DNA from: an uncultured Prevotellaceae bacterium
GTDB lineage: Bacteria; Bacteroidota; Bacteroidia; Bacteroidales; UBA3663
Length of the DNA stretch: 64,000 nt
Direction of reading: 5' to 3'
Assembly: GCA_900319235.1 (NCBI GenBank)
Contig: ONNR01000008.1
Coordinates: forward strand, 37,902 to 101,901
The translations under genes were made by a program, and so were the position numbers. Below are positions 1-59,221 of this stretch, piece by piece; position 1 is the first letter of the stretch; each line of letters begins with the position of its first letter. The notes under the pieces were generated by a model. That model had not been told where the DNA came from, searched no databases, and saw only the letters and a list, made by a program, of their open reading frames with translations.

Positions 1-951
1 AATGTGACTAATTCTGAGATCTATACTACTGAATGCGAAGATGATGGCGTTTTCCATTTCCGAAATCTTAGCTATCCCGACAGTACCTTGTTCTGCATTA
101 TGGCCTTCGCTCCCAATGGCAAACCGACTAAGGCAATTGAAATCGATAACTTTTCATTGCCCAAAACCATACAGCATCTGCCGAGCGATGCAAAGCAATA
201 CTACCTCAAGCTTACTTCCGATACGATAGCTGCCGACACTACGGCCAAATCCGCCAAGGCAGAGCCTGACAAAAATAAGGAGAAGCTCGAACAGAAAGTC
301 AAGGAGATGCTTGTTTCCAGTGAACCCGATGACATATACACGCGCTCTGCCCATAAAACCAGATACACCCGTACTCTTTCGGATTATAAATATTACGAAC
401 TCAAGGATATGATCTTGAAGTTCGACGACATTACCTTCGATGGCGAGGTAGCCAAGTATAAGACCAACGGTATGCACGTTCCTGTCCGCTTCGTAGTAGG
501 AACCACCGAAATGCCCATCGAGAAGGACTCTTTAGGTAAATATCTACCTCAAAAAGCCCTGGAGATACCCGTTGAAATGGTCTATGCCGTCGATTTCATT
601 CATCCCGAAGTTGCACGAACCATTGGGCGAACCGAATACCCCGAATCGCCCATCATCCGCATCGACTTGAAGAAGCTCAATGAACTCGTCTATGAATCCG
701 GATGGAATGATGTTCTCAAGCTTGTGATGCCCTTGGGCTACGTCAAGCGACTGCAGTTCCCCAACATTCACGTATCTCGCTCTCCCCGTGCCACCCGCTT
801 CTGGAACCCCGAGTACTTCACAGGTCCTTCAGGCCGGGTTACTCTCGACCTTCCTCTTCCCACCAACTATCACACCACCTACACTCTCCGCGCCGAAGGC
901 ATCACGCCCCTTGGCGAACCGATATCCCTTATCTATAGTATACAAAAGTAA
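1..951 (+). CDS. hypothetical protein; the frame is open to the left window edge, so it is possibly 5'-truncated
   Basis: Long ORF (track 4..951) in frame with position 1. No motif recognised. Compact spacing to the next gene. Confidence 0.5.
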   Translation, partial: NVTNSEIYTTECEDDGVFHFRNLSYPDSTLFCIMAFAPNGKPTKAIEIDNFSLPKTIQHLPSDAKQYYLKLTSDTIAADTTAKSAKAEPDKNKEKLEQKVKEMLVSSEPDDIYTRSAHKTRYTRTLSDYKYYELKDMILKFDDITFDGEVAKYKTNGMHVPVRFVVGTTEMPIEKDSLGKYLPQKALEIPVEMVYAVDFIHPEVARTIGRTEYPESPIIRIDLKKLNELVYESGWNDVLKLVMPLGYVKRLQFPNIHVSRSPRATRFWNPEYFTGPSGRVTLDLPLPTNYHTTYTLRAEGITPLGEPISLIYSIQK

Positions 952-9510: not shown

Positions 9511-10611
9511 ATGTCAAGAACAGCAGTTATCATACTCAATTGGAACGGCGAACAGAAAGGCCTGATTCGCCGATACCTGCCTTCGGTCGTGAAGAATACT
9601 CCCAAGGAGGTTGCTGAGGTGGTAGTGGCCGACAACGGCTCGACCGACAAGAGCCTTCAAGTGCTGAAGGAAGAATTTCCAAGCGTTAAGGTCATCCCTC
9701 TAGAGAAGAACTATGGTTTTGCCGAAGGCTACAATCAGGCCATCGACATCATTACCGAGCTCAAGCAGGAAGAGCTGAGAAGCCCCTCGGGCAATGTCTT
9801 CGAGGTGCATCGTATGGAGTCGCCTGACTATGTCGTCTTGCTCAACGACGACGTGCGTGTTCCCGAGGGATGGCTCGAACCGATGATAGCCTTTTTGGAT
9901 AGTCACCCCAATTGCGCTGCTCTGCAGCCCAAGATTCTTAAGGATGGCAACGAACAGATGTTCGAGTATGCCGGGGCCTGTGGAGGTTATCTCGATAACC
10001 TGTGCTTCCCTTATTGTCGCGGACGTATCTTCGACACGGTGGAGGAGGATATGGGCCAGTATGACCTGCCCGAAGGCGAGGCGTGGCCCGTGATGTGGGC
10101 CTCGGGAGCGTGCCTGCTGATTCGCACCGAGCTCTATATGAAAGCCGGTGGACTGGACCGTCGTTTCTATGCCCATATGGAGGAGATCGATTTATGTTGG
10201 AGGCTTCGAAGGATGGGCTATGACATCGTTTGCGTACCCCAGTCGAAGGTCTATCATCTGGGAGGTGCCAGTCTGCCTCAGGGCAATCCGAAGAAGACCA
10301 AACTCAACTTCCGTAACAACATCGTGATGATGTGGAAGAATCTTCCTGCAGACCAGTACAAGCACCTATTGCGCCGACGCAAGTTACTCGACGGTGTGGC
10401 TGCCGCCAACTTCCTTCGACAAGGGCAGTTCCGTAACTTCAAAGCCGTGTACGACGCCCATCGCGAGGCTGAGAAGATGATTGCCGAACAATATACAGCA
10501 GCAGAACTTATTGGCTTTGGAACTGCCAAGCCTTTCCTGCAGCAGCAGTTCAGCATCCTTTGGAAATACTTCAAGAAAGGCATCAAACGATATAGTGACC
10601 TGGGACTTTGA
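9511..10611 (+). CDS. glycosyltransferase family 2
   Basis: VIILNWNG, the ADNGSTD motif and the DDD..EDxxLCWR pattern of GT2 (rhamnosyltransferase-like) enzymes. Confidence 0.85.
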   Translation: MSRTAVIILNWNGEQKGLIRRYLPSVVKNTPKEVAEVVVADNGSTDKSLQVLKEEFPSVKVIPLEKNYGFAEGYNQAIDIITELKQEELRSPSGNVFEVHRMESPDYVVLLNDDVRVPEGWLEPMIAFLDSHPNCAALQPKILKDGNEQMFEYAGACGGYLDNLCFPYCRGRIFDTVEEDMGQYDLPEGEAWPVMWASGACLLIRTELYMKAGGLDRRFYAHMEEIDLCWRLRRMGYDIVCVPQSKVYHLGGASLPQGNPKKTKLNFRNNIVMMWKNLPADQYKHLLRRRKLLDGVAAANFLRQGQFRNFKAVYDAHREAEKMIAEQYTAAELIGFGTAKPFLQQQFSILWKYFKKGIKRYSDLGL

Positions 10612-36724: not shown

Positions 36725-37480
36725 TTACTTCCAAGCCTCGATGATAGGCATAAAGGTATCTACCTTGAGGGCAGCACCACCGATCAGGCCACCGTCGATG
36801 TCGGGCTGGGCAAAGAGCTCAGGAGCATTGGAGCCCTTGCAGCTGCCGCCATAGAGAATGCTGGTGTTGTCAGCCACGGCTGCATCGTACTTCTTGGCAA
36901 TAGATGCGCGGATGAAGGCGTGAACCTCCTCAGCCTGCTCGCTGGTAGCGGTCAGACCGGTACCGATAGCCCAAACGGGCTCGTAAGCAACGACGCACTT
37001 GGCAAAGTCCTCAGCCGAAAGGGTGTAGAGAGCCTCCATCTGGCCTTCGATAACCTCCTTGTAGGTGCCATTGACACGCTCCTCCTTCACTTCGCCAACG
37101 CAGAAGATTGGAGTAAGGCCATTGGCAAGAGCCTGCTGGAGCTTGGCAACGAGCAGCTCGTTGTTCTCGCCGTGGTACTGGCGACGCTCAGAATGACCGA
37201 GGATGACATACTTGGCACCCGTCGAAGCGATCATGTTGGCAGCAACCTCGCCTGTATAGGCGCCCTTCTCGTGAGCAGAGCAATCCTCGGCACCAACGCC
37301 GATGACGCTACCCTCGACAGCCTTGACTACCGATGCTACAGAGATGAATGGAGTACAAACGACAACGTCGCAATTGACCTTCTTGCCTGCAAGGGCCTCC
37401 TTGAGACCTTCAGCAAGTGCTATGCCTTCCTGGAGAGTGGTATTCATCTTCCAGTTGCCGGCTACGATTTTCTTACGCAT
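36725..37480 (-). CDS. tpiA: triose-phosphate isomerase
   Basis: [19 protein letters not shown], the VGE catalytic Glu region and GGASLK-like GGAALK. 251 aa counted from the internal ATG at 37480. Confidence 0.95.
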
Positions 37481-38770
37481 TTTTTTAGAATTATTTATTA
37501 ATGTTTGTTTATGTAGAAATTGTACTATTTCAACGAGCAAAAATAGAAAAAATGGAGCAAACAGCAAAAACAAAACCAATAAAATTCGGTTATGGTAGTT
37601 AATTTCTTCAATATCGCCGCTTGTTTGCTCATTTAACTTGCCACTTGTGAGACCTTCGGCATCGAGTCGCGAAAGAGGCGTTTTCCAGCAGATGACCCCA
37701 TCGCGCAGCAACATCACCGCTGGATTCGAGCGGCACATCGTCTCGATGATCGAAGCATCGGTGAACACAAACGGGTATTCAGCGCCCGTGTTGAACTTCC
37801 ATCGTTCGAGCTGTTTCTCGTCGCGTGCCGTAAGGCAAAGGAAGCCGTAGTCGTTGTCACCGGCATATTCCGAAAGGAGTTCGATGCGGTCGATGTCGTG
37901 CTGCGAAGCCTTGTCGAGCGAATGACTGAGTAAAAGCAGCGTATATCCAGGTCTCGACAAAAGTTCGTCGGTGATGACCTCGCCATCGGCGGTTTTTACG
38001 AAGAAGTCGATGTGCTTTGGTTCGGCCTTGCTCCTATCGTCTGAAACCTTGCCATCGGCGTGACGTTCAATCGTTTCGACAAACTCCCAGCCCTCGGCTT
38101 CGTCGGGAAGGCTGTCGAGCGAAAACTCCTGGCGAACGCCGTTGCGCTGATAGATGCAGACCCACTCCGAGTCGGAGTCCGTTGTTTGCTCCTGCCCCTC
38201 TCCCATCACGGCTTCCTTCAGATTGGTTCCGGGGGTGAACGGGCGAAAGTCGATGAAGGGTTCGCGCCAGCTGCCCATCCAGCAGAGCCACACGGCCAAA
38301 CCTAAGGCACAATAGCTGTAGAACACGTAGAACGTGCGTCCCATAAGCCGGTACATCAGCTCGCTCTTCGTCCAGAGTAGGGCAAGCATCACGATGAGAA
38401 TCAGGTTCTTGCCGAATGTTTGCCAGTTGGTCAGATGGACGGCATCGCCGAAGCATCCGCATTCGCTGATGGCATCGGTAAGCGCCAACCAAAGCGTCAA
38501 CGGGGTGAACAAGAGCAGCAGCAGGGTGCTGACCACAAGGGTGAGATGTCGTGCATGGCCCAACAGTATGTTCACACCGCAGATAAACTCCACGATGCAC
38601 AACAGCCACGCTATGCCCATCGACAGGTCGGTCAGCATCCCAAACCCGAAATATTGCAGGTATTCGGTCACCTTGATCGAGGTACCTGCCGGATCGACAC
38701 ACTTGGCCAGACCGCTGAAAATGAACACGGCGGCAAAAAGGAACTGAACGATGCGTACGACAATCTTCAT
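37481..38770 (-). CDS. BT_3928-like membrane protein (DoxX-like N-terminus plus thioredoxin-like domain plus C-terminal TM); no stop codon before tpiA
   Basis: N-terminus [27 protein letters not shown]. The frame runs uninterrupted into tpiA (track ORF 36725..38770, 681 aa). Confidence 0.7.
37538..37545 (-). promoter_or_regulatory. -7 box TATTTTTG inside the fused ORF, upstream of the tpiA ATG
   Basis: TAnnTTTG on the minus strand, 58 nt upstream of ATG 37480, in an AT-rich stretch. Confidence 0.45.
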
Positions 38771-42713: not shown

Positions 42714-42808
42714 TATTTATTTTATCACGAATTAGAGAATTAAAGAATTTTTTAACCTTTCCTTATTATTTTAATTCCATAATTCTCAAATTCGCTAATT
42801 CGTGATAA
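42705..42808. repeat. CACGAATTA-family element as an imperfect inverted pair, embedding the clpC stop
   Basis: Left arm ttatcacgaattagagaattaaagaatt (42722). The right arm aattccataattctcaaattcgctaattcgtgataa (42773) is its reverse complement (14 nt perfect plus extensions). The clpC stop lies in CACGAATTAA at 42705. Confidence 0.8.
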
Positions 42809-42828
42809 GAAAAAAAGTCCCCCTCTTA

Positions 42829-45800
42829 ATGAATCCCCGAAGAAAGGTCCTGACCGTCCTCTTGGCCGTCGTGACCATCTTGACCCAAGCGCAGCAGGCT
42901 ACATCCCTGCAAATCAACGAGATCTGCCCATCGAACATCGATCAATGGGTTGATCCTTCGTTTAATTATGGCGGTTGGGTCGAGCTTTATAATCCCACTT
43001 CCACGGCCGTCAATATCACCGGCTGGTATCTGAGCGACAAGAAGGAAAAGCTGCAGAAGGCCAAGGTCACGCAGACAACCTCCGTGCCCGCCAAGGGCTT
43101 CACAACCCTTTGGTTCGACCATTACAGCAAATGGTCGAAGAAGACCATCGATATGAAGCTCGATTGCGATGGCGGCACGCTCTATCTCAGCGACGCCCAG
43201 GGCAACCTCGTCACTTCGCGCGAATATCCCGAGGCCGTGTCGCGCTGCTCGTGGGCACGTACGTCCGATGGTGGCGACACGTGGAGCTATTGTGCCAATC
43301 CCACCCCAGGCAAGACCAATGCGGGCTGCAAGTTCGCCACCGAGCGTCTTGAAGAACCGGAAATCGACACACCCTCGCAGGTCTTCGGTACGTCAAGCAT
43401 CGCCGTCCACGTCACCATTCCCGAAGGCTGCACTTTGCGCTACACCACCGACGGCAGCGCGCCCACCGAGAAGAACGGCTACAATTCGCTGACGGGCGTC
43501 TTTTCGACCACTGTCACGCGCACGTTCCGCTTCCGTCTCTTCCGCGACGGCTACCTGCCCAGCGCCGTGGCTACGCGAACATTCATCAAGAGCACGCGCG
43601 ACATCGACCTGCCCATCCTCTCCATCACGGGCACGCAGGCCAATTTCTACGGCGACTCGCTGGGCATCTTCGTACAGGGAGTCAACGGACGCCCGGGCAA
43701 CGGACAGAGCTTCAAATGCAATTTCAATATGGATTGGGAGCGTCCCTCGGTGTTCGAATATTTCACGGCCGATGGCAAACTGCTCTTTGAGCAGGAGGCG
43801 GGCATCGAGCGTTGCGGTGGCTGGAGCCGAGCCTGGTCGCCCGCTTCGTTCAAGATCAAGGCCAACAAGCGCTACGAGGGCCAGAAGCACCTCCTCTATC
43901 CTTTCTTCGAGGAGAAACCCTACCTCAAGCACAAGACCGTGCAGATTCGCAATGGTGGCAACGACAACGGTTGTCGCGTGCTGGACGTCATTCTCCAGCA
44001 GATAGCTGCCACCTCGGGCCTCGACATCGACTACCAGGCCTATCAGCCCGTCGCCCATTTCGTCAACGGCGTGTGGAAGGGTGCCATCAATATGCGCGAG
44101 CCCAACAACAAGCACTTCGTCTATTCGAACTACGGCTACGACGAGGACGAGATCGACCAGTTCGAGATGTCGCCCGATTCGGGCTATTGCCAGAAGTGCG
44201 GCACCTACGAGGCGATGCAGGACCTGCTCACCCTTTCTAAGTCGGCTTCCGACGCCAATACCTACAAAGCCATCTGCGACCTCATCGATATGGACGAGTT
44301 CTGCAACTATATGGCCATCGAATTCTACCTGCGCAACAGCGACTGGCCGCAGAACAACCTCAAGGCCTGGCGCCCGCGTCGCGAGGACGGCCGCTTCCGC
44401 TTCGTGCTTTACGACCTCGATGGCTTCGACTGGACAAGTTCGCCGTTCAACGACTTCACCAACAAGCGCATCTATACCTTCAATCGCCTCTATGGCGAAT
44501 CGCAGCAGTACATCACCAAGGAGATCGAGGTGGTCACCATCTTCCTCAATCTGCTCAACAACGAGACCTTCCGCAAGAAGTTCATCGACACGTTCTGCCT
44601 CATTACCTATTCGGTGTTCGAACCTTCGCGTTGTGCCGAAATCTGCGAAAGTGTGGCCAACCGCGTGGCGCACACCCAAGGCCTTTACAACAACGAAAGT
44701 CCTTGGGGCACAGCCAACAACGTGAGGTCGGCGCTCTCGACATCGCGGCAGAACACCCTGATGAATTTGCTCAAAAGCTACAGCCGTATGAAGCTGTCGT
44801 CGCAATCCCCCCGCACGGCAAAGCTTGAGGCGAATATTCCTGAGGCGCGCCTTTCGTTCAACGGCATGCCCATCCCCACCGGCAAGTTCAACGGCAAATA
44901 CTACGCGCCCGTCACCGTCAAGGCCGAAGCCCCGTCGGGCTACGTCTTCACGGGTTGGCGTGTCGCTTCTACCACCAGCAGCGAGCTCTTCCCCACCACG
45001 CAAACCTGGCGCTACTACGACAAGGGTTCGCTCGACGGAATCAACTGGAGTGATGCCGACTACAACGATGGTTCGTGGGCTTCGGGACCTGCTCCGTTGG
45101 GTTACTACGTGGGCGGAAGTCGAGCCTATGGCACCACCATCAGCTACGGATACAACGTCAACAGCAAGTATCCGACCTACTATTTCCGCACGTCGTTCGA
45201 CCTCGCCGAAGCGCCCATGGGCAACGAGACGTTCCGCCTTTCGTTCACCGTCGACGACGGAATGATTGTCTATGTCAACGGCGTTGAGGCCATACGCTAC
45301 AATATGCCCGGTGGCAACGTCACCTACAACACCTACGCCACAACTTACGCCCAGGGCAACCCCGACAGCGGCACCGCCAACCTCAATGCCTCGCTCTTCA
45401 GGCAGGGCACCAACGTCATCGCCGTCGAAGTGCACAACAACTCCGGCTCTTCGACCGATATCTATTGGAGTGCCTCGTTGTCGAAAAACCTGACGTCGGG
45501 CGGAGAACTGGTGTGCAGCGATCCCGAATATGAACTCCCAGCAAGCAGCCGCGACCTCATCGCCTGCTTCGAACCCATCGCTTCTGCCGACACCCCTCTC
45601 CCACCTGTTGTCATCAACGAGGTGAGTGCCGACAATGGCATCTACATCAACGACTTGTGGAAGAAATCCGATTGGATTGAACTCCACAACACCACCAATC
45701 AGGACATCGACCTCGCGGGTATGTATCTCTCCGACAAGGTGGGTAAACCCGACAAGTGGCAGATAGGCGCAGACCTCGCTGAAGATTCCTCCATCTCGAC

Positions 45801-46257
45801 CATCATTCCCGCCCACGGCTACCGCATCATCTGGTGCGACAAGGAGGAGGGCATCCGTGACCTCCACGCCCCCTTCAAGCTCGAAAACGTCGATCAGAGC
45901 CAGGTCATCCTCTCGGCTGCCGATGGCTCGTGGAGCGACACGCTCACCTATTGCGCCCATCTCCCTGCCGAAACCGTCGGGCGCTATCCCGATGCTTCGC
46001 GCAACGTCTATCTGATGACGCGCACCACCATCGAGCGCACCAACCAGCTCACCACCATCGCCGCCACCGTCGAGCAACCTGCCGAGAGTGCCATCCAGCA
46101 GGTACTCTCCGACGACATCCTCGATGACAGCTATTCCATCTTCGACCTCAATGGCCGCCTTGTCCGCGAAGGCCGTGGCTCCCTCACTGAGGACCTTCCC
46201 TCGGGCGTCTATATCGTCCGCAGCAAGGGCTCGGCGTATAAGGTCGTGGTGCCGTGA
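42829..46257 (+). CDS. CotH kinase family protein with two lamin-tail (LTD) domains, Fn3-associated domains and a T9SS C-terminal sorting domain
   Basis: Two LTD signatures (LQINEI...WVELYNPT..ITGWYLSD and VVINEV...WIELHNTT..LAGMYLSD). The central CotH region is homologous to the other two CotH ORFs here. C-terminus IFDLNGRLV...GVYIVRSKGSAYKVVV. Confidence 0.85.
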   Translation: MNPRRKVLTVLLAVVTILTQAQQATSLQINEICPSNIDQWVDPSFNYGGWVELYNPTSTAVNITGWYLSDKKEKLQKAKVTQTTSVPAKGFTTLWFDHYSKWSKKTIDMKLDCDGGTLYLSDAQGNLVTSREYPEAVSRCSWARTSDGGDTWSYCANPTPGKTNAGCKFATERLEEPEIDTPSQVFGTSSIAVHVTIPEGCTLRYTTDGSAPTEKNGYNSLTGVFSTTVTRTFRFRLFRDGYLPSAVATRTFIKSTRDIDLPILSITGTQANFYGDSLGIFVQGVNGRPGNGQSFKCNFNMDWERPSVFEYFTADGKLLFEQEAGIERCGGWSRAWSPASFKIKANKRYEGQKHLLYPFFEEKPYLKHKTVQIRNGGNDNGCRVLDVILQQIAATSGLDIDYQAYQPVAHFVNGVWKGAINMREPNNKHFVYSNYGYDEDEIDQFEMSPDSGYCQKCGTYEAMQDLLTLSKSASDANTYKAICDLIDMDEFCNYMAIEFYLRNSDWPQNNLKAWRPRREDGRFRFVLYDLDGFDWTSSPFNDFTNKRIYTFNRLYGESQQYITKEIEVVTIFLNLLNNETFRKKFIDTFCLITYSVFEPSRCAEICESVANRVAHTQGLYNNESPWGTANNVRSALSTSRQNTLMNLLKSYSRMKLSSQSPRTAKLEANIPEARLSFNGMPIPTGKFNGKYYAPVTVKAEAPSGYVFTGWRVASTTSSELFPTTQTWRYYDKGSLDGINWSDADYNDGSWASGPAPLGYYVGGSRAYGTTISYGYNVNSKYPTYYFRTSFDLAEAPMGNETFRLSFTVDDGMIVYVNGVEAIRYNMPGGNVTYNTYATTYAQGNPDSGTANLNASLFRQGTNVIAVEVHNNSGSSTDIYWSASLSKNLTSGGELVCSDPEYELPASSRDLIACFEPIASADTPLPPVVINEVSADNGIYINDLWKKSDWIELHNTTNQDIDLAGMYLSDKVGKPDKWQIGADLAEDSSISTIIPAHGYRIIWCDKEEGIRDLHAPFKLENVDQSQVILSAADGSWSDTLTYCAHLPAETVGRYPDASRNVYLMTRTTIERTNQLTTIAATVEQPAESAIQQVLSDDILDDSYSIFDLNGRLVREGRGSLTEDLPSGVYIVRSKGSAYKVVVP

Positions 46258-48042: not shown

Positions 48043-49413
48043 TTACTTGATCAGCACCTTGCGACCGTTGTGGATGTAGAGGCCCTTGGCAGCGGGCTTG
48101 GTTGTGAGGCGACGGCCATCGAGGGTGAACCAGGCATCGGAAGCTGGGATGTCGTTGTTGGAGTCGATGGTCGGGATGGCAACGGTAGTGTTGGCAATGT
48201 AGTCGGCCTCGAGAGCCCCGATCTTGCTGATGACATTCATGACGAAGAGCAAGGCTGCGTCGACGTGTCTGCCTTCGGAGGTATAGGTTTCGAGCTTGTC
48301 GTCGCCGATGCCGCATTTGTCACGCAGGAAGTCGCGCATGTGCTCCATGTTGAAGTAAGGCACCACCTCGTCGTCGGCTGAATGATAGAGGAAGAAGCGG
48401 GTGTCGGGATTGGGCGTCCAGTCGTAGCAGACGGAGTTGTCGTAGATAGCCTGGAAGTAGGAATCCATTGCGGGGTTGGTACGTGAGATGTTGTCGGTGC
48501 GAATCATCTTGTCGACCCGGATTCCGGTGGAGGGATTGCCGCCGATGCAAGCGAAGATGGAGTCGTTGATTTCGTCGGTGGTGAGCGCCTTGCTGTCGTT
48601 CCATTCGATGAGTTTGGTATCGAGGGGAGCGTAGAAGATGTCGCTATAGCTGATGTCGAGGTTTGCACCTTCGATCTGACCTTCGACGATGAGCGAGATG
48701 CCACACGGATAGGGGAAGGTAGCATCGGGAATGAGCAGCGTATCCATCATTGCCTTGAGGTCGTAGGGACCGTCGCCGCAGAGGGTATAGTCGATGCGGG
48801 AGATGACTGCGGGATCGACCTCGTGGGTGTCGAAATAGCGCTGAACGGCCATTGAGGAGTGTCCACCCTGCGAATAGCCGAACTGTGCAAAGAGGTCGGC
48901 GACGGAGTAACCCATCTTCTTGAGCAGACGGCGTGCGGCACCGACGGCATCGATGTGGTTGATGGCAGTGGCGTCGGCAATGAGGTAGGCCTGCGGCTTG
49001 TCATCGGTCACGCCAAAGCCGTAGCTGTCGGGGCTGACGATGATGAGGCTGGGGCCGAGGGTGGCGAAGGGGCCTTCGATCAGTGGGTTACTGTTGACGG
49101 TAGGCGCCTCGTCGCGCTTGGTGATGGTGAAGTGGTTGTTGAGCACGAGTCCGCTGGCGTTGAATTCCTTGCCAGCGATTTCGAGCATCGCAGTGCGCTC
49201 GAAGATGCGCTGGGGGAAGAAGAGAGCCGAGGAGAGTGTGACGGGTGTGACGCCGTCGGGGGCCACGCTCTCGTAGGTGTAGTTGACGCGATAGTAGGGC
49301 ATCGCGCCCATCATGTTGAACGTCATCAGCGTGGTGTCGGTGATGACTTCTTCGGCCGAAAGGCTCAGGGTGCACGCCATGAGGAGTGCGGAGAGGTAGA
49401 ATTTCTTGTTCAT
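48043..49413 (-). CDS. secreted lipase/esterase-like alpha/beta hydrolase with T9SS C-terminal sorting domain
   Basis: Signal peptide and nucleophile elbow GYSQGG. C-terminus WFTLDGRRL..KGLYIHNGRKVLIK. Confidence 0.7.
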   Translation of the reverse strand: MNKKFYLSALLMACTLSLSAEEVITDTTLMTFNMMGAMPYYRVNYTYESVAPDGVTPVTLSSALFFPQRIFERTAMLEIAGKEFNASGLVLNNHFTITKRDEAPTVNSNPLIEGPFATLGPSLIIVSPDSYGFGVTDDKPQAYLIADATAINHIDAVGAARRLLKKMGYSVADLFAQFGYSQGGHSSMAVQRYFDTHEVDPAVISRIDYTLCGDGPYDLKAMMDTLLIPDATFPYPCGISLIVEGQIEGANLDISYSDIFYAPLDTKLIEWNDSKALTTDEINDSIFACIGGNPSTGIRVDKMIRTDNISRTNPAMDSYFQAIYDNSVCYDWTPNPDTRFFLYHSADDEVVPYFNMEHMRDFLRDKCGIGDDKLETYTSEGRHVDAALLFVMNVISKIGALEADYIANTTVAIPTIDSNNDIPASDAWFTLDGRRLTTKPAAKGLYIHNGRKVLIK

Positions 49414-50790: not shown

Positions 50791-52611
50791 TTATCTGATT
50801 TGTATCTTCTTGACCAGAGGGCCCTGGCGCACGATATAGATGCCCGTGGGAAGAGCGTTGAGGTCGGTGCCGAGGGTTTGGCCACTGAGCGAATAGACGC
50901 TGTAGGGGCGGCTGAAGTCGATGTCGTCGGGGTCGGAATCGGAGATGATTGAGATGCTTTCGGGAACATAGGTGTAGCCCAGGCGATTGTCCATCCATTC
51001 GACGCGCTTTCGGATGAAGTCGCGCACATTCTCCACCTCGGCGGCATAACTGCCCCAGATCCTGGGGTTCTGGTGCACAATCTTCTTCATGATGGGCCAA
51101 CGGAGGAAGTTGAGTTCCTGCGACAGGAGGAGCTCCTCCTCCATCGAATCGACGAAGGCGACGAGATGTTCCTGGTCGATGCCATTGTGTCGAGCCTCGC
51201 CCCATATCGCGAGCAGCTGGTCCTTCGTGCTTTCGTTATTGATGATGATCTTATCGACAAAACTGCGCATATTGCCCGCACAGCTTCCTCCCGATCGATA
51301 GACGTAGTCGCTCATATCGTTGGGGTTCCTGATGCGCCCGTCGTTGTTGAAAGCGAGGTCGAAGTCCCAGACGGGACCTGTGTAGATGGTGTCGTTCAGA
51401 CGTTGCTTGTACATGAAGACGCTCCAATAGGTGTCGATGTTGCCCGAGAGTTCGCCCACGAGGAAATGTCGCAGGAAGGTGTTGAGGTCGAGGTAACTGC
51501 TCCAGTTGCTCTCCATCCTGTTGAAGTGATTGCGGATGTAGTTCTTCTGGACGGAGGTGATGCTGTCGCTATCGGGCGACTTGATGGTGACGGGCTTCCA
51601 CTGATTGGAGTAGAAATAGGATGCTTCGCGATCGGCATAAGCATCGATTTCGAAGAAGTAGCCGCCTGTGAGCGCATCGCCGCTATTGTCGCGCGGCGTC
51701 ATCTCCTCGATCTGGACACGATCCTTGTGAACCTGGATGTGGTCGCAAAGCTGGTAACAGCCCTTGTATTCGCCGTTGAGCAGCACATCGACGGCACGGC
51801 CGTAGGGAGTGTAGGGCATGCCCAACCGTCGACTCAATTCGAAGGCCAGCAGGTTGCGCATCAGCGTCTTGTCGCCATAATTGTTGATGAGTGTCCACTT
51901 TTTGGCGTGGGCAGGAGCATCGAGCACGTGCTGCTTCTTTTCGAACTTGATGCGCCAGGGCTTCTTGGGAAAATCGCGCGAAGCATTGCCGCGTTCGCGG
52001 ATGGTGCCGGGTTCGGAGAGCAGGGCATAAGAGCTGTCGCCGATGATGGTGAACTGCGCCTCTATTTCGTGCTCTTTATCGTAGGGAATTACCCCATCGA
52101 GGGTGTGGATGCTGACGGTGGGGAGGTTGGTGATGCGAGTGAGATTGGAATGGTCGCCCATGCCTTTATGGCCATAGAATTCGAGCTCAGCGACTTGAGA
52201 AAAACTGGTAGCCGGTCCTACATAGCGCACATAACGAAAACCTACGGAACAAGTGATCTCAGCATAATTCATCTCCCCCGGTTTGCCCACCTCGCCGACA
52301 CTTCTGATGATGTGAAGGGGCAAGGCATCCATAAAGTCGGGGCTATTGGCGCCTTCGAACACGCCGAGGATCATACGGCTGGGGACGTTGTCGCGCGGCA
52401 TCCACCCTACCCTGGTGATGACGTGACGTTCACCCAGGTCGAGGCCTGCCCAACCGTAGTTGAAGTTCGTGGCAGAGAAGTAAGTGCCAGGATTTCCGTC
52501 GAAAGCCTTGTCGGCGTTGTTGAGTACGGTTCCCGTCAACAGGTCATCTGCAGCCAGCGACACCATGCTGACTGCCCATAGAATGACCAATGATGTATAG
52601 AATCTTAACAT
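50791..52611 (-). CDS. CotH kinase family protein with N-terminal F5/8 type C (discoidin) domain and T9SS sorting domain
   Basis: Discoidin-like N-terminus (AFDGNPGTYF...VAELEFYG). CotH core homologous to 56031..58664. C-terminus VYSLSGQ...GIYIVRQGPLVKKIQIR. Confidence 0.85.
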   Translation of the reverse strand: MLRFYTSLVILWAVSMVSLAADDLLTGTVLNNADKAFDGNPGTYFSATNFNYGWAGLDLGERHVITRVGWMPRDNVPSRMILGVFEGANSPDFMDALPLHIIRSVGEVGKPGEMNYAEITCSVGFRYVRYVGPATSFSQVAELEFYGHKGMGDHSNLTRITNLPTVSIHTLDGVIPYDKEHEIEAQFTIIGDSSYALLSEPGTIRERGNASRDFPKKPWRIKFEKKQHVLDAPAHAKKWTLINNYGDKTLMRNLLAFELSRRLGMPYTPYGRAVDVLLNGEYKGCYQLCDHIQVHKDRVQIEEMTPRDNSGDALTGGYFFEIDAYADREASYFYSNQWKPVTIKSPDSDSITSVQKNYIRNHFNRMESNWSSYLDLNTFLRHFLVGELSGNIDTYWSVFMYKQRLNDTIYTGPVWDFDLAFNNDGRIRNPNDMSDYVYRSGGSCAGNMRSFVDKIIINNESTKDQLLAIWGEARHNGIDQEHLVAFVDSMEEELLLSQELNFLRWPIMKKIVHQNPRIWGSYAAEVENVRDFIRKRVEWMDNRLGYTYVPESISIISDSDPDDIDFSRPYSVYSLSGQTLGTDLNALPTGIYIVRQGPLVKKIQIR

Positions 52612-52948: not shown

Positions 52949-55567
52949 ATGAAACATCTTTCTACGTTTCTGGCTTTACTTTCGGCATTAACCGTAAATG
53001 TAGCCGTGGCTCAGGAAGTTAGCATCGATGAGGCACAAGGCCGTGCCGTCGATTTCCTGAAGAGCCAGACCGATGGCGCCAAGCGCGTCAAGGGGGCAGA
53101 CGTTGCCCCACATGTTTCGTTGGCCTATACCTCGAAGAGCGAGGACAAGACATGTTTCTACGTCTTCAATGCCGGTGAGGACGAGGGTTTCGTCATCGTC
53201 GGTGGTGACGAGGCTGCGCATGAGATTTTGGGTTATTGTGACCATGGCTCGTTCGATTATGACACTGCTCCTGCCAACTTAAAGTGGTGGCTGAGCCAGT
53301 ACACCGAGCAGATTGCCCATGCCGCAAAGGCTGGGGTTAAGGGTGCACGTAGAGCGAAGGCAGAAACGACGACACGAGCAGAAATAACTCCTTTGATAAG
53401 CACGAAGTGGGATCAAGATGCTCCCTATAATGGTTTGATTCCTAAATACACAAGTGGAAATAATGAATATTCTTTCATCACAGGATGTGTGGCAACGGCT
53501 ATGGCACAAGTGATGAAATACCATCACTTTACCCCTTTTGCTGGTGTTACTATACCAAGCTATAATAGTCTGATTACGTATCCAAACAGTAGCAAGGATG
53601 AAAAGATGGAGATACCAAGTATTACGGTTCCATCTAATTATTCATGGGATGCTATGTTAGATTTGTATCCATCGTCTTACGATCCTCAGAATGCCAATGA
53701 TGTTGCAGTAGCTGAGCTGATGTATCATGCAGGAGCTTCGGTGCTAATGAAGTATGGCACTATGCAAACCGGTGGTTCGAGCGCTAGTTCAGCAAAAATA
53801 CCTGGAGCTCTATCTTCATATTTCGGATACGACAAATCGGCGCACAATGAGTATAGAGGATGCTATTCGGATGAGGTGTGGGAAGACATGGTTTATGCAG
53901 AACTGTCAAATGGTAAGCCTGTACTATATAGCGGAAGTACAATAGAAGGTGCTGGTCATCAATTCATTTGTGACGGTTATAAAGATGTCGGTTATCATAT
54001 CAATTGGGGATGGAGCGGTGCTTATAATGGCTTTTTTCTGTTGACTCCATATAACAACACTCCCGCCTTAACTCCTGACGGTACTGGAAGTGGTGGTGGA
54101 GCTGCTGGATCATCATACGACCAAGGTCAACTGATTACTTTGGGACTGAAACAAAATGCAGGAGGTTCAGAAACTCCACATCTTGTTCAGATCACAGATA
54201 ATTCTACACTCACTACTCCAATGTATATGAAGGTAGGAAATGAACAAGTAAATAATTATACATACAATGTTTCTACCGACAATAGTCAGTGTTATCTTTC
54301 TACTACAATCTATAATATCAGTTGCCTTTCTAGCCAGTTTGACTATGGCGTTAAAGCAGTTAATAAGGAATCTGGCGAGGTAAAATATATACTATCACAA
54401 TATGAGGGTCAAAATTTAAGTGTTGGTAATTACTATAGTAGTCTGGTTAATCTTCATTTTACCCCATCCAACCTTACTGATGGCACATATCAGCTATTTC
54501 CTGCATTCAGAATGTATGGAAGTAGTGATTGGATGGATGTTCAGTTGAATTGTTCTGCTACTATTCCAGAAATAACGATAACAAGAGATGTGCAACCAAG
54601 CACACAACTGATTCAATTGACAAGGAGCCCGGAATTCAATAATGACAACAATCCATATTCCGGAGATCTTGTATTTAATATTTATTTTAGGATTAATGTT
54701 GCGGATGCTGGGAACGATAAAATTCCCTCAGTTTCTTTATATGCTAAAATAGATAAAGAAGATGGAACAAACGTAGCTAATCATACTATCAATTTTTCCA
54801 ATGTTCAACCAAATGCTAATTTAAGTGGTACAGTCAACTTATCAAGTTTGTCAGAATCACTAGTTACCAACAACAAATACACTTTGACATTCTTTTCTGA
54901 TGCAAGTTATACAGAATCACTTGGTGATAATTCTTCCATCGACTTCACTTATCGTGAAGGATTAACTGTATATTACGGCGTAAGTCCTGCTGGATACGGC
55001 ACACTCATCTTGCCATTCAATGCTAAGGTGCCCGAAGGTATGACTCTCTATAGTTGCGATTTGACTGATAATAATAATGCTATTTTATTGTCTCCATTGA
55101 CAACAACTGTTATCGAACGCAACAAGCCCTACATCGTAAAGGCAAATTATGATTCTAATGATCCTAGTCCTTATTCGTTTACAGGCCCCAAGGCAATAGA
55201 TGATGACCATCTATTCGTAGATGGCTTCTTGTGTGGAGCAGTGGCTAACGATGTGCCACTTACCCATAATGATTATATTTTGCAATATAATTCTGAGACT
55301 CAAACCGCTGGATTCTATTTGTACGTCAGCGAAACTGAAAATCGCAAAGCAGCACCTTATCGTGCGTTTTTACGTATTCAGAATCGTAATTTGGCACCTC
55401 CTGTTCTACCTAATGAAGAGCCAGAAAGCATCGAGGAAATACGGATGAACCACAGCATTCCTGCCGGCATCTACTCGCTCGACGGCAAACGCCAATCGGA
55501 GCTGAAGAAGGGTCTGAATGTGATTATCCTCGACGATGGAACTTCTAAAAAAGTATATGTCAAATAA
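52949..55567 (+). CDS. C10-family (streptopain-like) cysteine peptidase with Spi-type propeptide, a long C-terminal extension and a T9SS sorting domain
   Basis: Signal peptide and pro-region VSIDEAQGRAVDFL. Catalytic Cys in TGCVATAMAQVMKYHHF and catalytic His in AGHQFICDGY..YHINWGWSG. C-terminus GIYSLDGKR...KKVYVK. Confidence 0.85.
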   Translation: MKHLSTFLALLSALTVNVAVAQEVSIDEAQGRAVDFLKSQTDGAKRVKGADVAPHVSLAYTSKSEDKTCFYVFNAGEDEGFVIVGGDEAAHEILGYCDHGSFDYDTAPANLKWWLSQYTEQIAHAAKAGVKGARRAKAETTTRAEITPLISTKWDQDAPYNGLIPKYTSGNNEYSFITGCVATAMAQVMKYHHFTPFAGVTIPSYNSLITYPNSSKDEKMEIPSITVPSNYSWDAMLDLYPSSYDPQNANDVAVAELMYHAGASVLMKYGTMQTGGSSASSAKIPGALSSYFGYDKSAHNEYRGCYSDEVWEDMVYAELSNGKPVLYSGSTIEGAGHQFICDGYKDVGYHINWGWSGAYNGFFLLTPYNNTPALTPDGTGSGGGAAGSSYDQGQLITLGLKQNAGGSETPHLVQITDNSTLTTPMYMKVGNEQVNNYTYNVSTDNSQCYLSTTIYNISCLSSQFDYGVKAVNKESGEVKYILSQYEGQNLSVGNYYSSLVNLHFTPSNLTDGTYQLFPAFRMYGSSDWMDVQLNCSATIPEITITRDVQPSTQLIQLTRSPEFNNDNNPYSGDLVFNIYFRINVADAGNDKIPSVSLYAKIDKEDGTNVANHTINFSNVQPNANLSGTVNLSSLSESLVTNNKYTLTFFSDASYTESLGDNSSIDFTYREGLTVYYGVSPAGYGTLILPFNAKVPEGMTLYSCDLTDNNNAILLSPLTTTVIERNKPYIVKANYDSNDPSPYSFTGPKAIDDDHLFVDGFLCGAVANDVPLTHNDYILQYNSETQTAGFYLYVSETENRKAAPYRAFLRIQNRNLAPPVLPNEEPESIEEIRMNHSIPAGIYSLDGKRQSELKKGLNVIILDDGTSKKVYVK

Positions 55568-55585: not shown

Positions 55586-55759
55586 ATGAAAAAGCAATAT
55601 AATACCCCAAAACTTGATGTAGTCAATTTGGAGCTTAATGATATAGTAACTCAATCGAATGGAGGTGAAACATTGGGTGTTTCTGCAACCGGTTATACCT
55701 CAGGAGCTACTCAATGGGGCAAGCGCCGTCCGGACATCTGGGGAGAGGACGAAGACTAA
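55586..55759 (+). CDS. small ORF (57 aa), below the track threshold; paralog of 58692..58853
   Basis: MKKQYNTPKLDVVNLELNDIVTQSNGGETLGVSATGYTSGATQWGKRRPDIWGEDED. Starts 19 nt after the C10 stop and is followed by a terminator. Confidence 0.45.
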   Translation: MKKQYNTPKLDVVNLELNDIVTQSNGGETLGVSATGYTSGATQWGKRRPDIWGEDED

Positions 55760-55782
55760 TTCGAAATAACTACCCTATCAAT

Positions 55783-55817
55783 AAGCCTTGGCCGATTGTG
55801 GTCAAGGCTTTATTTTG
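55783..55817 (+). terminator. rho-independent terminator (copy 1 of a near-identical pair)
   Basis: AAGCCTTGGCC-GATTGT-GGTCAAGGCTT, then TATTTTG. Confidence 0.8.
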
Positions 55818-56030: not shown

Positions 56031-58664
56031 ATGTTTTTAGAACTACTATCTAATGTGCTGAAACGGTTTTGTTTCTGTTTGATATTTATGAGCTCAGCCA
56101 CTGCGATGTCTTTGGCTGAAGATGTTGTATTGTCTGGCACGGTGCTCAATGGTTCAAATAATGCTTTTGACCAAAACGCAAGCACATACTATTCGGGCAA
56201 TTCCAAGAACTATGCATGGGCAGGTTTGGATTTGGGAGACCCGTGCATTATTACTAAGGTGGGATGGATGCCTCGTAGCGGTTATGTTAGTCGTATGCAA
56301 CTTGGCGTCTTTGAAGGAGCTAACGACCCGAACTTTATGGATGCCTTGCCTCTCACGATTATTCGTGTTGCTGGACAAGCGGGAAAAATGAACTATGCCG
56401 AAGTCTCCTGTTCTCGTGGTTTTCGCTATGTGCGCTATGTCGGTCCTTCGGGTAGTTTTGGAAATGTCGCAGAACTAGAATTCTATGGGCATCCAGGCGA
56501 GGGTGATATGTCCAATCTCTATCGTATCACCAATCTGCCTACTATCAGCCTCCATACTCTCAATAATGAGCTTCCCGTAGATAAGGAAAATGATGTGAAT
56601 GTACAAATTATCATCATTGGTGATAACGTCAGTCAATATCTGATTGAACCAGGATCATTCCGTGAGCGAGGCAATGTGTCGCGTTATTTTGACAAGAAAC
56701 CCTGGCGAATAAAGTTTGAGAGCAAGCAACGCGTGCTTGATGCACCTGCCAAGGCCAAGAAATGGACCCTTATCCCTAACTATAGTGACAAGACCTTGAT
56801 GCGTAACCTTTTAGCCTTCGAGCTAAGTCGATGTGTCGGTATGCCTTATACTCCTTATGGACGTTCCGTAGATGTTCTTGTGAATGGCGAGTACAAAGGT
56901 AATTATCAGTTATGTGATCAGATTCAGGTCCATAAGAAACGTGTCAATATCGAGGAGATGACACCTCGTGATGACTCTGGAGATGCCCTTACTGGTGGAT
57001 ATCTGTTTGAGATTGATGCTTATGCTGACGATGAGAAGTCCTTTTTTTATTCTGAGAAGAATACTCCTGTGACCATCAAGTCGCCTGATGATGACAGTAT
57101 CACCGACAATCAGAGGAATTATATCGAGACTCATTTTAACAAATTGGAGAACGATTGGCGCAAATATCTTGACCTGAATACATTCCTGCGACACTTTCTT
57201 GTTGGAGAGCTATCGGGCAATACTGACACCTATTGGAGCGTCTACATGTACAAGCATAGGATGAATGATACCATCTATACAGGCCCCGTATGGGATTTCG
57301 ACATAGCTTTTCAAAACGATTATCGTACCTACCCCATCAATGACAAGAGCGATTTTATTTATCGCTCGGGAGGAAGTTGTGCGGGCAACATGCTGAATTT
57401 TGTAGATGATATCGTCATTAACAATGATAGCGCATCTCAACGACTTGTTTCCATTTGGGAAGAAGCTCGTCATAAAGTATTGGATGAAGAACATGTTGTT
57501 GCATATATAGATTCACTTGAGGAGGAAATGCAGCAATCGCAGGAGCTTAATTTCAAGCGCTGGCCTATTTTGAAAGAGAGGGTACAAATGAATCCAATTG
57601 TCTGGGGCAGTTATGAAGCCGAGGTCGGAAATGTGCGCGACTTTGTCGTCAATCGTATTAAATGGATGGACAATCGCCTGGGTGCTGTGATTGACCCGGC
57701 ACTATTTGTTGATCAGCCTTTTGTCAACAATGGCAATAATGCATACGAAGATGATCTGGTGATGCACTTCAATCTCAAGAGTGAATCCCGGTATGAGTCA
57801 AATGCCCATGTATATTATTCGATCAATGCCGATCAGTTGGCATGGAATGGTCGAAATGATTATGCTTCGATTCCTGTTGGCGGAGAATTGACGGGAGAAT
57901 TGGACCTTGCTCAGTCTTTTGCAGACATCAAGAATGACTTGACGCCAAATCAGAGCTACACGGTCTATTTCTATACCGATAAGAACCGGAACAAGCCCTA
58001 CAACTATCCTTCGGCCACCTTTACCTATCGTTCGAAACTGACGGTTGACTATAGTGTTGAATCTATGGGATATGGCACGCTGATACTTCCATTTGACCAC
58101 GAACTTCCCGAAGGCTGGAAAGTGTATGGTTGTTCGGGCGTAGATGAAAATGGCGTGCTGACCTTGGACGAAGATGTCAGCATCAGGCGCAATGTGCCAT
58201 ACATCATACAGGCCACTCCAGGCACTACCTACCAGTTTGTGGGCCCTAAGGCCATCGATGCCGATAAACCTACATTTACCGAAGGTGTGTTGGTCGGAGT
58301 TGTTGCCGACAACGTCCCGCTCGTTGCAGGAACAGACTACATCATGCAGGATCAGGCTGGCAGGGTCGCATTCTATAAATACACGGGCACTCCCTCGACC
58401 GACCCATTGGAGAATGACAGCAATAATAATCGGCTTGCTACACCTTTCCGTGCTTATCTGAGGCTCAATAATTCAGCCAATGCCAAGTTATTCTTGCCTA
58501 ATCATATTGCTGGCGAGACTGAGGGTATCGAGGAAATTGGCAACGAAAATGCCCGTCGTGCCGGCTTCTACTCCATCGACGGCAAGCGACATGAATCTCT
58601 CCAGAAGGGCTTTAACCTAATCATCAGCGAAGATGGCTCGGTTCAAAAAGTTTTCGTCAAATAA
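56031..58664 (+). CDS. CotH kinase family protein with N-terminal discoidin domain, a C-terminal module shared with the C10 peptidase, and a T9SS sorting domain
   Basis: Strongly similar by eye to 50791..52611 over the discoidin and CotH regions. The last ~300 aa align with the C-terminus of 52949..55567. Confidence 0.85.
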   Translation: MFLELLSNVLKRFCFCLIFMSSATAMSLAEDVVLSGTVLNGSNNAFDQNASTYYSGNSKNYAWAGLDLGDPCIITKVGWMPRSGYVSRMQLGVFEGANDPNFMDALPLTIIRVAGQAGKMNYAEVSCSRGFRYVRYVGPSGSFGNVAELEFYGHPGEGDMSNLYRITNLPTISLHTLNNELPVDKENDVNVQIIIIGDNVSQYLIEPGSFRERGNVSRYFDKKPWRIKFESKQRVLDAPAKAKKWTLIPNYSDKTLMRNLLAFELSRCVGMPYTPYGRSVDVLVNGEYKGNYQLCDQIQVHKKRVNIEEMTPRDDSGDALTGGYLFEIDAYADDEKSFFYSEKNTPVTIKSPDDDSITDNQRNYIETHFNKLENDWRKYLDLNTFLRHFLVGELSGNTDTYWSVYMYKHRMNDTIYTGPVWDFDIAFQNDYRTYPINDKSDFIYRSGGSCAGNMLNFVDDIVINNDSASQRLVSIWEEARHKVLDEEHVVAYIDSLEEEMQQSQELNFKRWPILKERVQMNPIVWGSYEAEVGNVRDFVVNRIKWMDNRLGAVIDPALFVDQPFVNNGNNAYEDDLVMHFNLKSESRYESNAHVYYSINADQLAWNGRNDYASIPVGGELTGELDLAQSFADIKNDLTPNQSYTVYFYTDKNRNKPYNYPSATFTYRSKLTVDYSVESMGYGTLILPFDHELPEGWKVYGCSGVDENGVLTLDEDVSIRRNVPYIIQATPGTTYQFVGPKAIDADKPTFTEGVLVGVVADNVPLVAGTDYIMQDQAGRVAFYKYTGTPSTDPLENDSNNNRLATPFRAYLRLNNSANAKLFLPNHIAGETEGIEEIGNENARRAGFYSIDGKRHESLQKGFNLIISEDGSVQKVFVK

Positions 58665-58691: not shown

Positions 58692-58853
58692 ATGAAAAAG
58701 TCATATGATTCTCCGATATTTCGGGTTCGGTTTGTAAAAGTGTCTGACGTGATAGTCACCTCCGACCCACAACTTACTGACGATCCTTCTGACGACGGCA
58801 AGCAGTTGGCAAAGCCTACGGGTCGTTCTAATGATTGGGAAAGTTACGAGTAA
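58692..58853 (+). CDS. small ORF (53 aa), below the track threshold; paralog of 55586..55759
   Basis: MKKSYDSPIFRVRFVKVSDVIVTSDPQLTDDPSDDGKQLAKPTGRSNDWESYE. Starts 28 nt after the CotH stop and is followed by the paired terminator. Confidence 0.45.
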   Translation: MKKSYDSPIFRVRFVKVSDVIVTSDPQLTDDPSDDGKQLAKPTGRSNDWESYE

Positions 58854-58867
58854 TCTTTGGATTAGAA

Positions 58868-58900
58868 AAGCCTTGGCCAATGTGGTCAAGGCTTTATTTT
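58868..58900 (+). terminator. rho-independent terminator (copy 2); overlaps the 3' end of the convergent AraC-type gene
   Basis: AAGCCTTGGCC-AATGT-GGTCAAGGCTT, then TATTTTC. Confidence 0.8.
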
Positions 58901-59221
58901 CTTCATATATGATCGTGGCGAATCGTTCATGATCTGTTTGAACTTGCGGAAGAATGCCGTCTCTGAAACGAAACCCGATTCGGTGGCAACATTTTCCATC
59001 GTCATCATGGGATGTTCGGCCATCACGGCGATTGAATATTCGATGCGCTTTCGATTAAGGTAAACGGTAAACGAATAGCCGAATGTCGTGTTTATCGCCC
59101 TTGATACGTAAAGGCGATTGGTGGCAAGTTCCCTGGCAACATCCCGGATTGTGAGTTCGGGGTTTCGGAACAGTAGCTCATCGTTCATGATGGCTTCTAT
59201 CTTTTGAATAAGCTCTTCCAT
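58886..59221 (-). CDS. stand-alone AraC-type helix-turn-helix DNA-binding protein
   Basis: 111 aa consisting of an HTH_18-type double HTH (LTIRDVARELATNRLYVSRAI...ESGFVSETAFFRKFK). No sensor domain. Confidence 0.8.
   Translation of the reverse strand: MEELIQKIEAIMNDELLFRNPELTIRDVARELATNRLYVSRAINTTFGYSFTVYLNRKRIEYSIAVMAEHPMMTMENVATESGFVSETAFFRKFKQIMNDSPRSYMKKIKP

Follow-up and report, generated by a model that had tools for sequence, protein, structure and literature searches.

A 64-kb stretch of DNA from an uncultured Prevotellaceae bacterium (64,000 nucleotides of contig ONNR01000008.1; hereafter the window, whose positions are used for all numbering) contains two small open reading frames (ORFs), ORF-A and ORF-B, each of which lies directly behind a gene for a large protein, here termed its cargo. 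Related loci collected for comparison carry labels in the style L001. Cargo gene 1 (52949..55567, plus strand) encodes a secreted C10 cysteine protease of 872 amino acids (Pfam PF13734, E 1e-24; PF01640, E 5e-53), in which a signal peptide, an Inhibitor_I69 propeptide and the Peptidase_C10 domain are followed by a module shared with the second cargo (residues 643–827, approximately nt 54875–55429, plus strand, limits set by jackhmmer) and a 45-residue C-terminal tail (approximately nt 55430–55564, plus strand; tail hidden Markov model (HMM) E 1e-24). ORF-A follows at 55586..55759 on the plus strand, and its translation of 57 residues consists of MKKQYNTPKLDVVNLELNDIVTQS, a variable region and QWGKRRPDIWGEDED (family HMM E 1e-21). 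Cargo gene 2 (56031..58664, plus strand) encodes a CotH-family protein of 877 amino acids with a galactose-binding-like N-terminal region (Pfam PF08757, E 2e-42). Its module spans residues 643–832 (approximately nt 57957–58526, plus strand; jackhmmer) and its 45-residue tail, found with the tail HMM, approximately nt 58527–58661 on the same strand; the last 230 residues of the two cargo proteins are 46% identical. ORF-B (58692..58853, plus strand) translates to 53 residues that begin with MKKSYDSPIFRVRFVKVSDVIVTS, continue with DPQLTDDPSDDGKQL and end in NDWESYE. The right-hand border of the locus is a convergent gene on the minus strand (58886..59221), whose AraC-family product of 111 amino acids consists of an HTH_18 domain alone (Pfam PF12833, E 5e-13).

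Both ORFs were found where the first-pass annotation of this DNA had placed them, and they translate as it had written. It had also put each close behind a module-bearing gene, and the gaps are indeed short: 18 nt from the stop of the C10 protease gene to the start of ORF-A and 27 nt from the stop of the CotH gene to the start of ORF-B. The two ORFs are approximately 45% identical in DNA and 23% identical in protein. Neither peptide has a signal peptide or lipobox, and Pfam and NCBIfam searches with both ORFs returned nothing above cut-off. Beyond ORF-A and ORF-B, a six-frame scan of the window for M[KRN]..[YFW]xxPx[LIVFM] found a single 10-residue chance match. Both ORFs are in frame with their cargo, but an origin as read-through extensions was rejected, as two stop codons separate ORF-A from its cargo gene and the gaps at other loci (10, 11, 16, 25 and 41 nt) are not multiples of three. 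Three CotH-family paralogues lie inside 16 kb of the window (42802–46254, plus strand; 50794–52611, minus strand; 56031–58664, plus strand); one has Lamin-tail and CHB_HEX_C domains, and the combination of module, tail and small ORF is found in the third only.

Transcription units and coding status

Each small ORF is followed by a hairpin. Terminator A (55783..55816, plus strand) is an intrinsic terminator with a 12-bp stem, AAGCCTTGGCC/GGTCAAGGCTT, and a T-run (−19.3 kcal/mol, z −3.7). Terminator B (58867..58900) is bidirectional, its 13-bp stem being flanked by A and T runs (−21.7 kcal/mol on the plus strand and −15.1 on the minus strand, z −4.7). The two hairpins, with their stems of 12–13 bp and T-runs, are the top terminator-like sites across 52.4–59.7 kb, and the pattern appeared in 0 of 100 shuffles, so it is unexpected by chance; both are real terminators. 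They are identical at 32 of 34 aligned positions, as against approximately 45% DNA identity between the ORFs, which bears out the earlier remark that the terminators are more alike than the coding regions. No terminator was found between cargo gene and small ORF in either pair. With short gaps that hold no terminator, and a terminator after the ORF, the peptide would be made from the mRNA of its cargo, straight after the C-terminal end of the cargo. The arrangement indicates that each small ORF is the second cistron of a two-gene unit made up of secreted enzyme, peptide and intrinsic terminator.

As read from the sequence, terminator B extends over the final codons and stop of the AraC-type gene that converges on it. 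Within its stem (58867–58895), one G·U pair on the plus strand becomes an A·C mismatch on the minus strand (−21.7 versus −15.1 kcal/mol). At L022 (16208–16232) the wobble sits on the opposite arm, so that the hairpin there favours the AraC-type transcript.

Comparison with related loci indicates that ORF-A and ORF-B are real, conserved genes under purifying selection. ORF-A has seven homologous clusters at 77–96% identity, with length differences of whole codons; ORF-B has nine at 63–100% identity, with in-frame indels, and the identical ORF-B protein is present on at least 23 public contigs. Across the related loci, the median ratio of non-synonymous to synonymous substitution rates (dN/dS) is 0.14 for 15 ORF-B-type sequences and 0.31 for eight ORF-A-type sequences, with dS above 1 and synonymous sites saturated, and several near-identical ORF-B-type loci differ at three to four synonymous and no non-synonymous sites. 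An intact copy of ORF-A in L001 is overlaid by a gene call in the wrong frame, which illustrates how easily gene callers miss these genes. The first-pass annotation had allowed that the likeness of the two ORFs might merely be that of duplicated 3′ untranslated sequence, an explanation that purifying selection on the reading frames rules out. The wider proposal that the ORFs have no protein function, as chance frames in a duplicated 3′ untranslated region or as a conserved RNA element, is in keeping with hairpins that are better conserved than the ORFs and with the many gene callers that skip the ORFs or choose another frame, but dN/dS lies far below 1 with saturated dS, indels stay in frame and amino-acid motifs are kept across phyla despite diverged DNA, and we regard it as effectively excluded on these comparisons.

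The peptide family and its genomic neighbours

A profile of the two subfamilies, searched against 1.84 billion representative proteins (E < 1e-3), found 153 family clusters (at 50% identity), and 149 of the 150 listed are 35–67 residues long and align from residue 1. Across 211 sequences the N-terminal signature is MKKxYxxPxhx[VI][VI]xhxxxD[IV][IV]xTS, with Tyr conserved in 96%, Pro (at +3 from it) in 97% and Ser in 97%; the Ser lies exactly 19 residues past the Tyr, and position +5 is hydrophobic. The MKK-Y--P start, D(I/V)(I/V)xTS block and basic-Trp-acidic end that had been seen in both ORFs are the signature of this family, recurring across the 211 related small proteins. The region after the signature is variable, rich in Asp, Gly, Ser and Glu and essentially free of Cys, with a mean net charge of −4.4 (−3.5 for whole members), and it usually ends in a basic-Trp-acidic stretch such as RxxIWDEDE or SDWDNY. 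Members occur in both Bacteroidota and Bacillota, and one genome or locus can hold several: L040 has three within 11.5 kb, and in one metagenome-assembled genome three contigs carry members. Those of L040, a single metagenome contig, are at 687–848 (minus strand), 8001–8156 (plus strand) and 9589–9768 (plus strand); one is behind an alpha-amylase/CBM26 gene, one behind a gene for 461 amino acids and one before a tail-bearing gene for 408 amino acids.

Modelling with AlphaFold2 from a 149-sequence alignment gave no fold and no notable secondary structure (predicted TM score 0.27), the model being disordered, with the first 20 residues confidently extended (predicted local distance difference test (pLDDT) 85–87). 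The prediction points to a small peptide that has no fold of its own. The family profile had no significant match in the PDB, and tblastn against plasmid and phage collections returned no match. The idea that the peptide is a decayed duplicate of the tail or module of its cargo was rejected (hhalign probability 0.1%). No description of the family or of its gene pairing was found in the searchable literature and the domain libraries, a literature search on small ORFs behind cargo of the type IX secretion machinery (T9SS) found nothing relevant, and the family has no name in Pfam or NCBIfam. Sequence comparison thus places both ORFs in what appears to be a large, unnamed and previously undescribed family of acidic peptides of about 50 residues.

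Bacteroidales members almost always lie 0–206 nt downstream of, and on the same strand as, a large gene whose product ends in the module and tail. This shared C-terminal end comprises a module of approximately 185 residues and then a tail of approximately 30–45 residues, of the type (I/F)YSIDGKRxxxLQKGLNVIIxxDGxxxKVxVK or YxLxGRRVxxPxKGLYIxNGKKVxIK. We collected 43 related loci and placed their members by the family HMM; narrower locus alignments yielded 8 genome, 4 metagenome and 3 viral loci. Because the peptide was the route to these loci, many of which are orthologous, the counts drawn from them are biased and non-independent: among 35 unique member contexts, approximately 25 lie behind an intact tail-bearing gene at 0–206 nt and four more (L015–19, L021, L030 and L024) behind a cargo remnant or contig-edge fragment, so that approximately 29 of 33 evaluable contexts follow a gene ending in module and tail, or its remnant. 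Within the sampled loci, a member stands behind 20 of the 23 genes that have both module and tail versus one of the seven that have the tail only (Fisher p ~9e-4). The catalytic parts of the cargo are unrelated and include C10 proteases with or without Big_2, CotH, alpha-amylase/CBM26, LRR_5 and proteins free of Pfam domains. Despite the biased counts the direction is clear: it is the module and tail, rather than the catalytic domain, that the small ORF travels with. Homologues of the two ORFs follow module-bearing genes preferentially, rather than always.

The tail itself, which unrelated enzymes share, looks as if it could be the final strands of a C-terminal domain (CTD) of the type IX secretion kind. 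The CTD models do not recognise it: the Por_Secre_tail models TIGR04183 and PF18962 gave no match at E ≤ 10 for eight tails and none for the full proteins. A profile built from module and tail hits the C-terminal ends of two glycosidases of solved structure, a hexosaminidase (PDB 8bbl_A, E 8e-7) and a rumen arabinanase (4kca_A, E 2e-3), which shows that module and tail together form a common end-piece of secreted enzymes; a literature search for PDB 8BBL found no paper. An AlphaFold2 model of module plus tail, built from two sequences, is beta-rich and of low confidence (pLDDT 47.5). Elsewhere in the window, a 456-residue protein free of Pfam domains (48043–49413, minus strand) offers an internal contrast: it has the classic tail AWFTLDGRRLTTKPAAKGLYIHNGRKVLIK at its end and no module, and no small ORF follows its gene.

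Three contexts look at first like exceptions. Relative to L014, loci L015–L019 have an integrative element of approximately 7.6 kb in place of the promoter and most of a gene for a 571-residue module/tail protein (L016:329–7942; L014:6000–7942). The element carries a tyrosine integrase, DUF4419, a retropepsin-like Asp_protease_2 and two HTH_17 genes, and what remains beside it is the last 18 cargo codons and an intact small ORF. The last 17 cargo codons are left in L021 and approximately 75 in L030. All three (L015–19, L021 and L030) evidently represent recent losses of the cargo gene. The breaks at L021:6650–6720 and L016:7943–8000 are independent losses of cargo with two different tail types, and both fall 54–57 nt before the cargo stop; the match could reflect coincidence, a preferred recombination point or expression signals for the small ORF in the last cargo codons. 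Asp_protease_2 was considered as a recurrent neighbour of the family and rejected, being present in two contexts only, one of them inside the mobile element.

Candidate functions of the peptide

Our best reading, which we put forward tentatively, is that the family members are cytoplasmic docking peptides coupled to their cargo. The near-invariant 24 N-terminal residues (MKKxYxxPxhxVVxhxxxDIIxTS) would form a putative extended docking strand, of the type found in the leaders of lasso peptides and linear polyphosphorylated peptides (LPPs), that would bind a partner by beta-strand addition, and the variable, acidic, Trp-containing remainder would serve as the effector or specificity part. Acting in the cytoplasm and coupled to its own cargo, the peptide might be a holdase or adaptor that keeps the module and tail of freshly synthesised cargo competent for export, or it might report export of the cargo to a regulator. 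The 3′ block of module, tail, peptide gene and terminator would be inherited and swapped whole under differing catalytic domains. We rank a cargo-coupled role first because no other signal is as strong or as specific as the position of the gene, and because a clustered pathway for a ribosomally made peptide that is modified post-translationally (RiPP), the most serious rival, should have appeared in some of the approximately 35 contexts.

Several observations, in addition to the bias of the counts, weigh against a cargo-coupled role. True exceptions exist: members lie upstream of the cargo gene in L022a and L040b, the L032 member is behind a Beta_helix protein that lacks the tail, and three module genes have no member. 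Firmicute members (L011, L027 and L041–42) keep the N-terminal motif beside neighbours that lack module and tail, so the docking partner may be something common to both phyla and not the module. An intact member persists after loss of the cargo in L021, which fits a cargo-independent role or a recent deletion. The cargo here carries a Sec signal peptide; we know of no cytoplasmic chaperone for the Sec route and of no precedent for cytoplasmic chaperones of Sec/T9SS-type cargo.

Known small partners of secreted proteins offer partial parallels. Class I chaperones of type III secretion and VirE1 of type IV secretion are likewise small and acidic and are encoded directly beside the gene of a secreted protein, but they are folded dimers of approximately 130 residues or, for VirE1, a helical protein of 65, whereas the peptide described here has no predicted fold. 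Bacteroidota also have cargo-specific partner genes of the PorP/SprF type directly downstream of secreted-protein genes. There, for the type-B CTD of the T9SS, the downstream partner gene tracks the C-terminal region of the cargo and not its catalytic domain, as it does here; the PorP/SprF-like partners are, however, outer-membrane beta-barrels of approximately 300 residues with signal peptides, in contrast to a soluble, acidic peptide of approximately 55 residues that has none.

A serious rival, although on balance an unlikely one, is that the peptide is a RiPP-like precursor. Residues 1–24 would then be a leader whose lasso/LPP-type YxxPxh motif is bound by a RiPP recognition element (RRE, a PqqD-like domain), with cleavage or modification at or beside the invariant Ser24 by enzymes that are encoded elsewhere in the genome, act in trans and serve many scattered precursors. 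This would account for a conserved N-terminus, maintained across Bacteroidota and Bacillota, ahead of a variable remainder, for the several paralogues in a genome and for the disorder in the AlphaFold2 model. For a cut after Ser24, position −3 holds Thr, Ala, Cys or Val in 86% of members, and Ser occupies −1 in 97%; small residues at −3 and −1, with Thr at −2, fit both the signal-peptidase-I rule and the rule for the lasso protease B2. Among 18,950 NCBIfam models, two lasso precursor models alone recurred, NF033528 (lasso_cyano; 22 of 149) and NF033524 (the paeninodin family; 6 of 149). All these matches are sub-threshold and confined to residues 1–11, with a best family E-value of 0.002 and, for NF033528, 17.1 bits against a cut-off of 33. 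The likeness to an RRE-bound leader proposed in the first-pass annotation holds for the YxxP start and is weakly supported.

Like lasso precursors, members are in the range of 40–60 residues and have a Lys-rich start that leads into Y-x-x-P-x-(L/I/V/F), to which discrete RRE domains bind, and the lasso leader motif Y/WxxPx(L/V/I/F/A) near the N-terminus is present in the family (211 sequences). Thr is also frequent two residues ahead of where the leader putatively ends. The features specific to lasso peptides do not hold up, however. Tyr and Thr are 18 apart instead of 15, the conserved Gly is missing, and no cyclase, B1 or B2 gene lies nearby. The ring-closing Asp or Glu at core positions 7–9 is found in 41–49% of members, not above the 55% expected from composition, and ORF-A has none. 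The acidic, Trp-containing C-terminal end is conserved, which would be unusual in a hypervariable core, and a RiPP role leaves the tight placement behind module genes without a reason.

The LppA precursors of LPPs in Bacillota offer a second comparison. Their leader, YxxPxVLxHQxIxFETxxS, has a Ser 18 residues past the Tyr, and the cluster encodes an RRE that binds the leader, an HprK-like kinase and a SipW-like peptidase that cuts it (PMC13381572). The distal conserved Ser (at 18 there and 19 here), the variable C-terminus, a linear rather than cyclised product and several precursors per leader are points of likeness. Only the YxxP and the distal Ser are held in common, however, the residues between Pro and Ser being different; no LPP cluster genes lie near members, and LPPs have no link to secreted-enzyme genes. 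At L011 (8001–8117) a Firmicute member of 38 residues contains TSDPKIEDDGYEDGEL, which is near the core of ORF-B; it lies behind a gene for a 1038-residue Glug protein and abuts a polysaccharide-biosynthesis locus, and published LPP clusters of Bacilli also lie inside capsule loci.

The first-pass annotation had seen no maturation enzyme nearby, and this extends to every related locus: no radical SAM protein, PqqD/RRE domain, Asn-synthase-like cyclase, transglutaminase-like (B2) protease, YcaO, lanthipeptide enzyme, ATP-grasp maturase or HprK-like kinase turned up in a scan of every substantial ORF in the 64-kb window or in the Pfam tables for related loci, some 35 contexts. The substantial ORFs of the window encode housekeeping functions, transporters, ClpB, the three CotH paralogues, hydrolases and GH3. 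Among them is an ORF of 681 residues (36728–38770, minus strand) that joins a MauE-type membrane domain (residues 1–133) to a full triosephosphate isomerase (434–679); it may be a true fusion or two genes read together.

An improbable alternative is that the peptide is a secretion-coupled co-regulator that partners the 111-residue AraC-type protein. Some type III class I and VirE1-like chaperones double as co-activators of AraC-family regulators, and by analogy with the type III chaperones the peptide would do so after the substrate has left. In the window and in eight further distinct locus families (L003, L007, L020–22, L025 and L026 among the loci concerned), the AraC-type gene converges on a member and shares the terminator of the small ORF, and in L003/L004 it has been duplicated along with the peptide gene; the AraC-type product has no ligand or sensor domain, and the pair outlives the cargo in L021. 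All these cases are flanked by a minus-strand CotH gene on one side and a GH3 gene on the other, which makes them orthologous copies of one locus and hence one observation. An AraC partner as a general rule was rejected for this confinement to a single orthologous locus; ORF-A and the members of other loci have no AraC-type neighbour, and AraC-family genes are very common in Bacteroidales. The number of cargo–peptide–terminator units at this orthologous locus varies, with none in L021, one in L007 and two in the window, which suggests that units are gained and lost as blocks.

Least probable among the protein-level roles, and very unlikely, is that the peptide serves as a dedicated inhibitor or immunity factor directed at the upstream enzyme, the inhibitor of C10 proteases being an idea from the first-pass annotation. 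ORF-A does follow a C10 protease, and small inhibitor genes adjoin C10 or KLIKK proteases in Bacteroides and Tannerella. Those inhibitors (Spi/Inhibitor_I69, the staphostatin-like Bfi and the potempins) resemble the present case in being encoded by a small gene beside that of a secreted Bacteroidales protease, but they are protease-specific folded proteins or lipoproteins of more than 100 residues with export signals. The family described here is not protease-specific: its members follow kinases, glycosidases and leucine-rich-repeat proteins, the genes ahead of them are just as readily those for CotH, alpha-amylase/CBM26, LRR_5 or unknown proteins as those for C10 proteases, and ORF-B-type peptides lie behind both CotH and C10 genes. 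This variety of cargo largely refutes the inhibitor idea. The peptides also carry neither signal peptide nor lipobox by which they could reach an exported protease, neither ORF matches a Pfam inhibitor, and the C10 protein already carries an Inhibitor_I69 propeptide of its own.

Possible significance for secretion in Bacteroidales

A substantial share of the probability lies with functions outside those listed above. With that in mind, and with some doubt, we suggest that the locus exemplifies an unrecognised two-gene arrangement of Bacteroidales, in which enzymes with the module and tail are each accompanied by a cytoplasmic docking peptide of approximately 55 residues, made from the same mRNA, that may couple synthesis or export of the enzyme to quality control or regulation, the whole forming an exchangeable 3′ cassette. 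A holdase for the C-terminal domain, or a co-activator released upon export of the cargo, would be examples of such coupling.

The family represents an annotation gap of at least 153 clusters at 50% identity, often missed by gene callers and unnamed in Pfam and NCBIfam, and it sits in operons for secreted proteases, kinases and glycosidases of rumen Bacteroidales that act on feed and host. If its members were RiPP-type precursors, lasso-like leaders would be used outside gene clusters in Bacteroidota. If they are cargo-coupled partners, they would constitute a new cytoplasmic component of secretion in the phylum and offer a means of predicting which secreted proteins use a common pathway. The family is best filed among leader-type small peptides, and it may instead represent a new kind of partner for secreted cargo.

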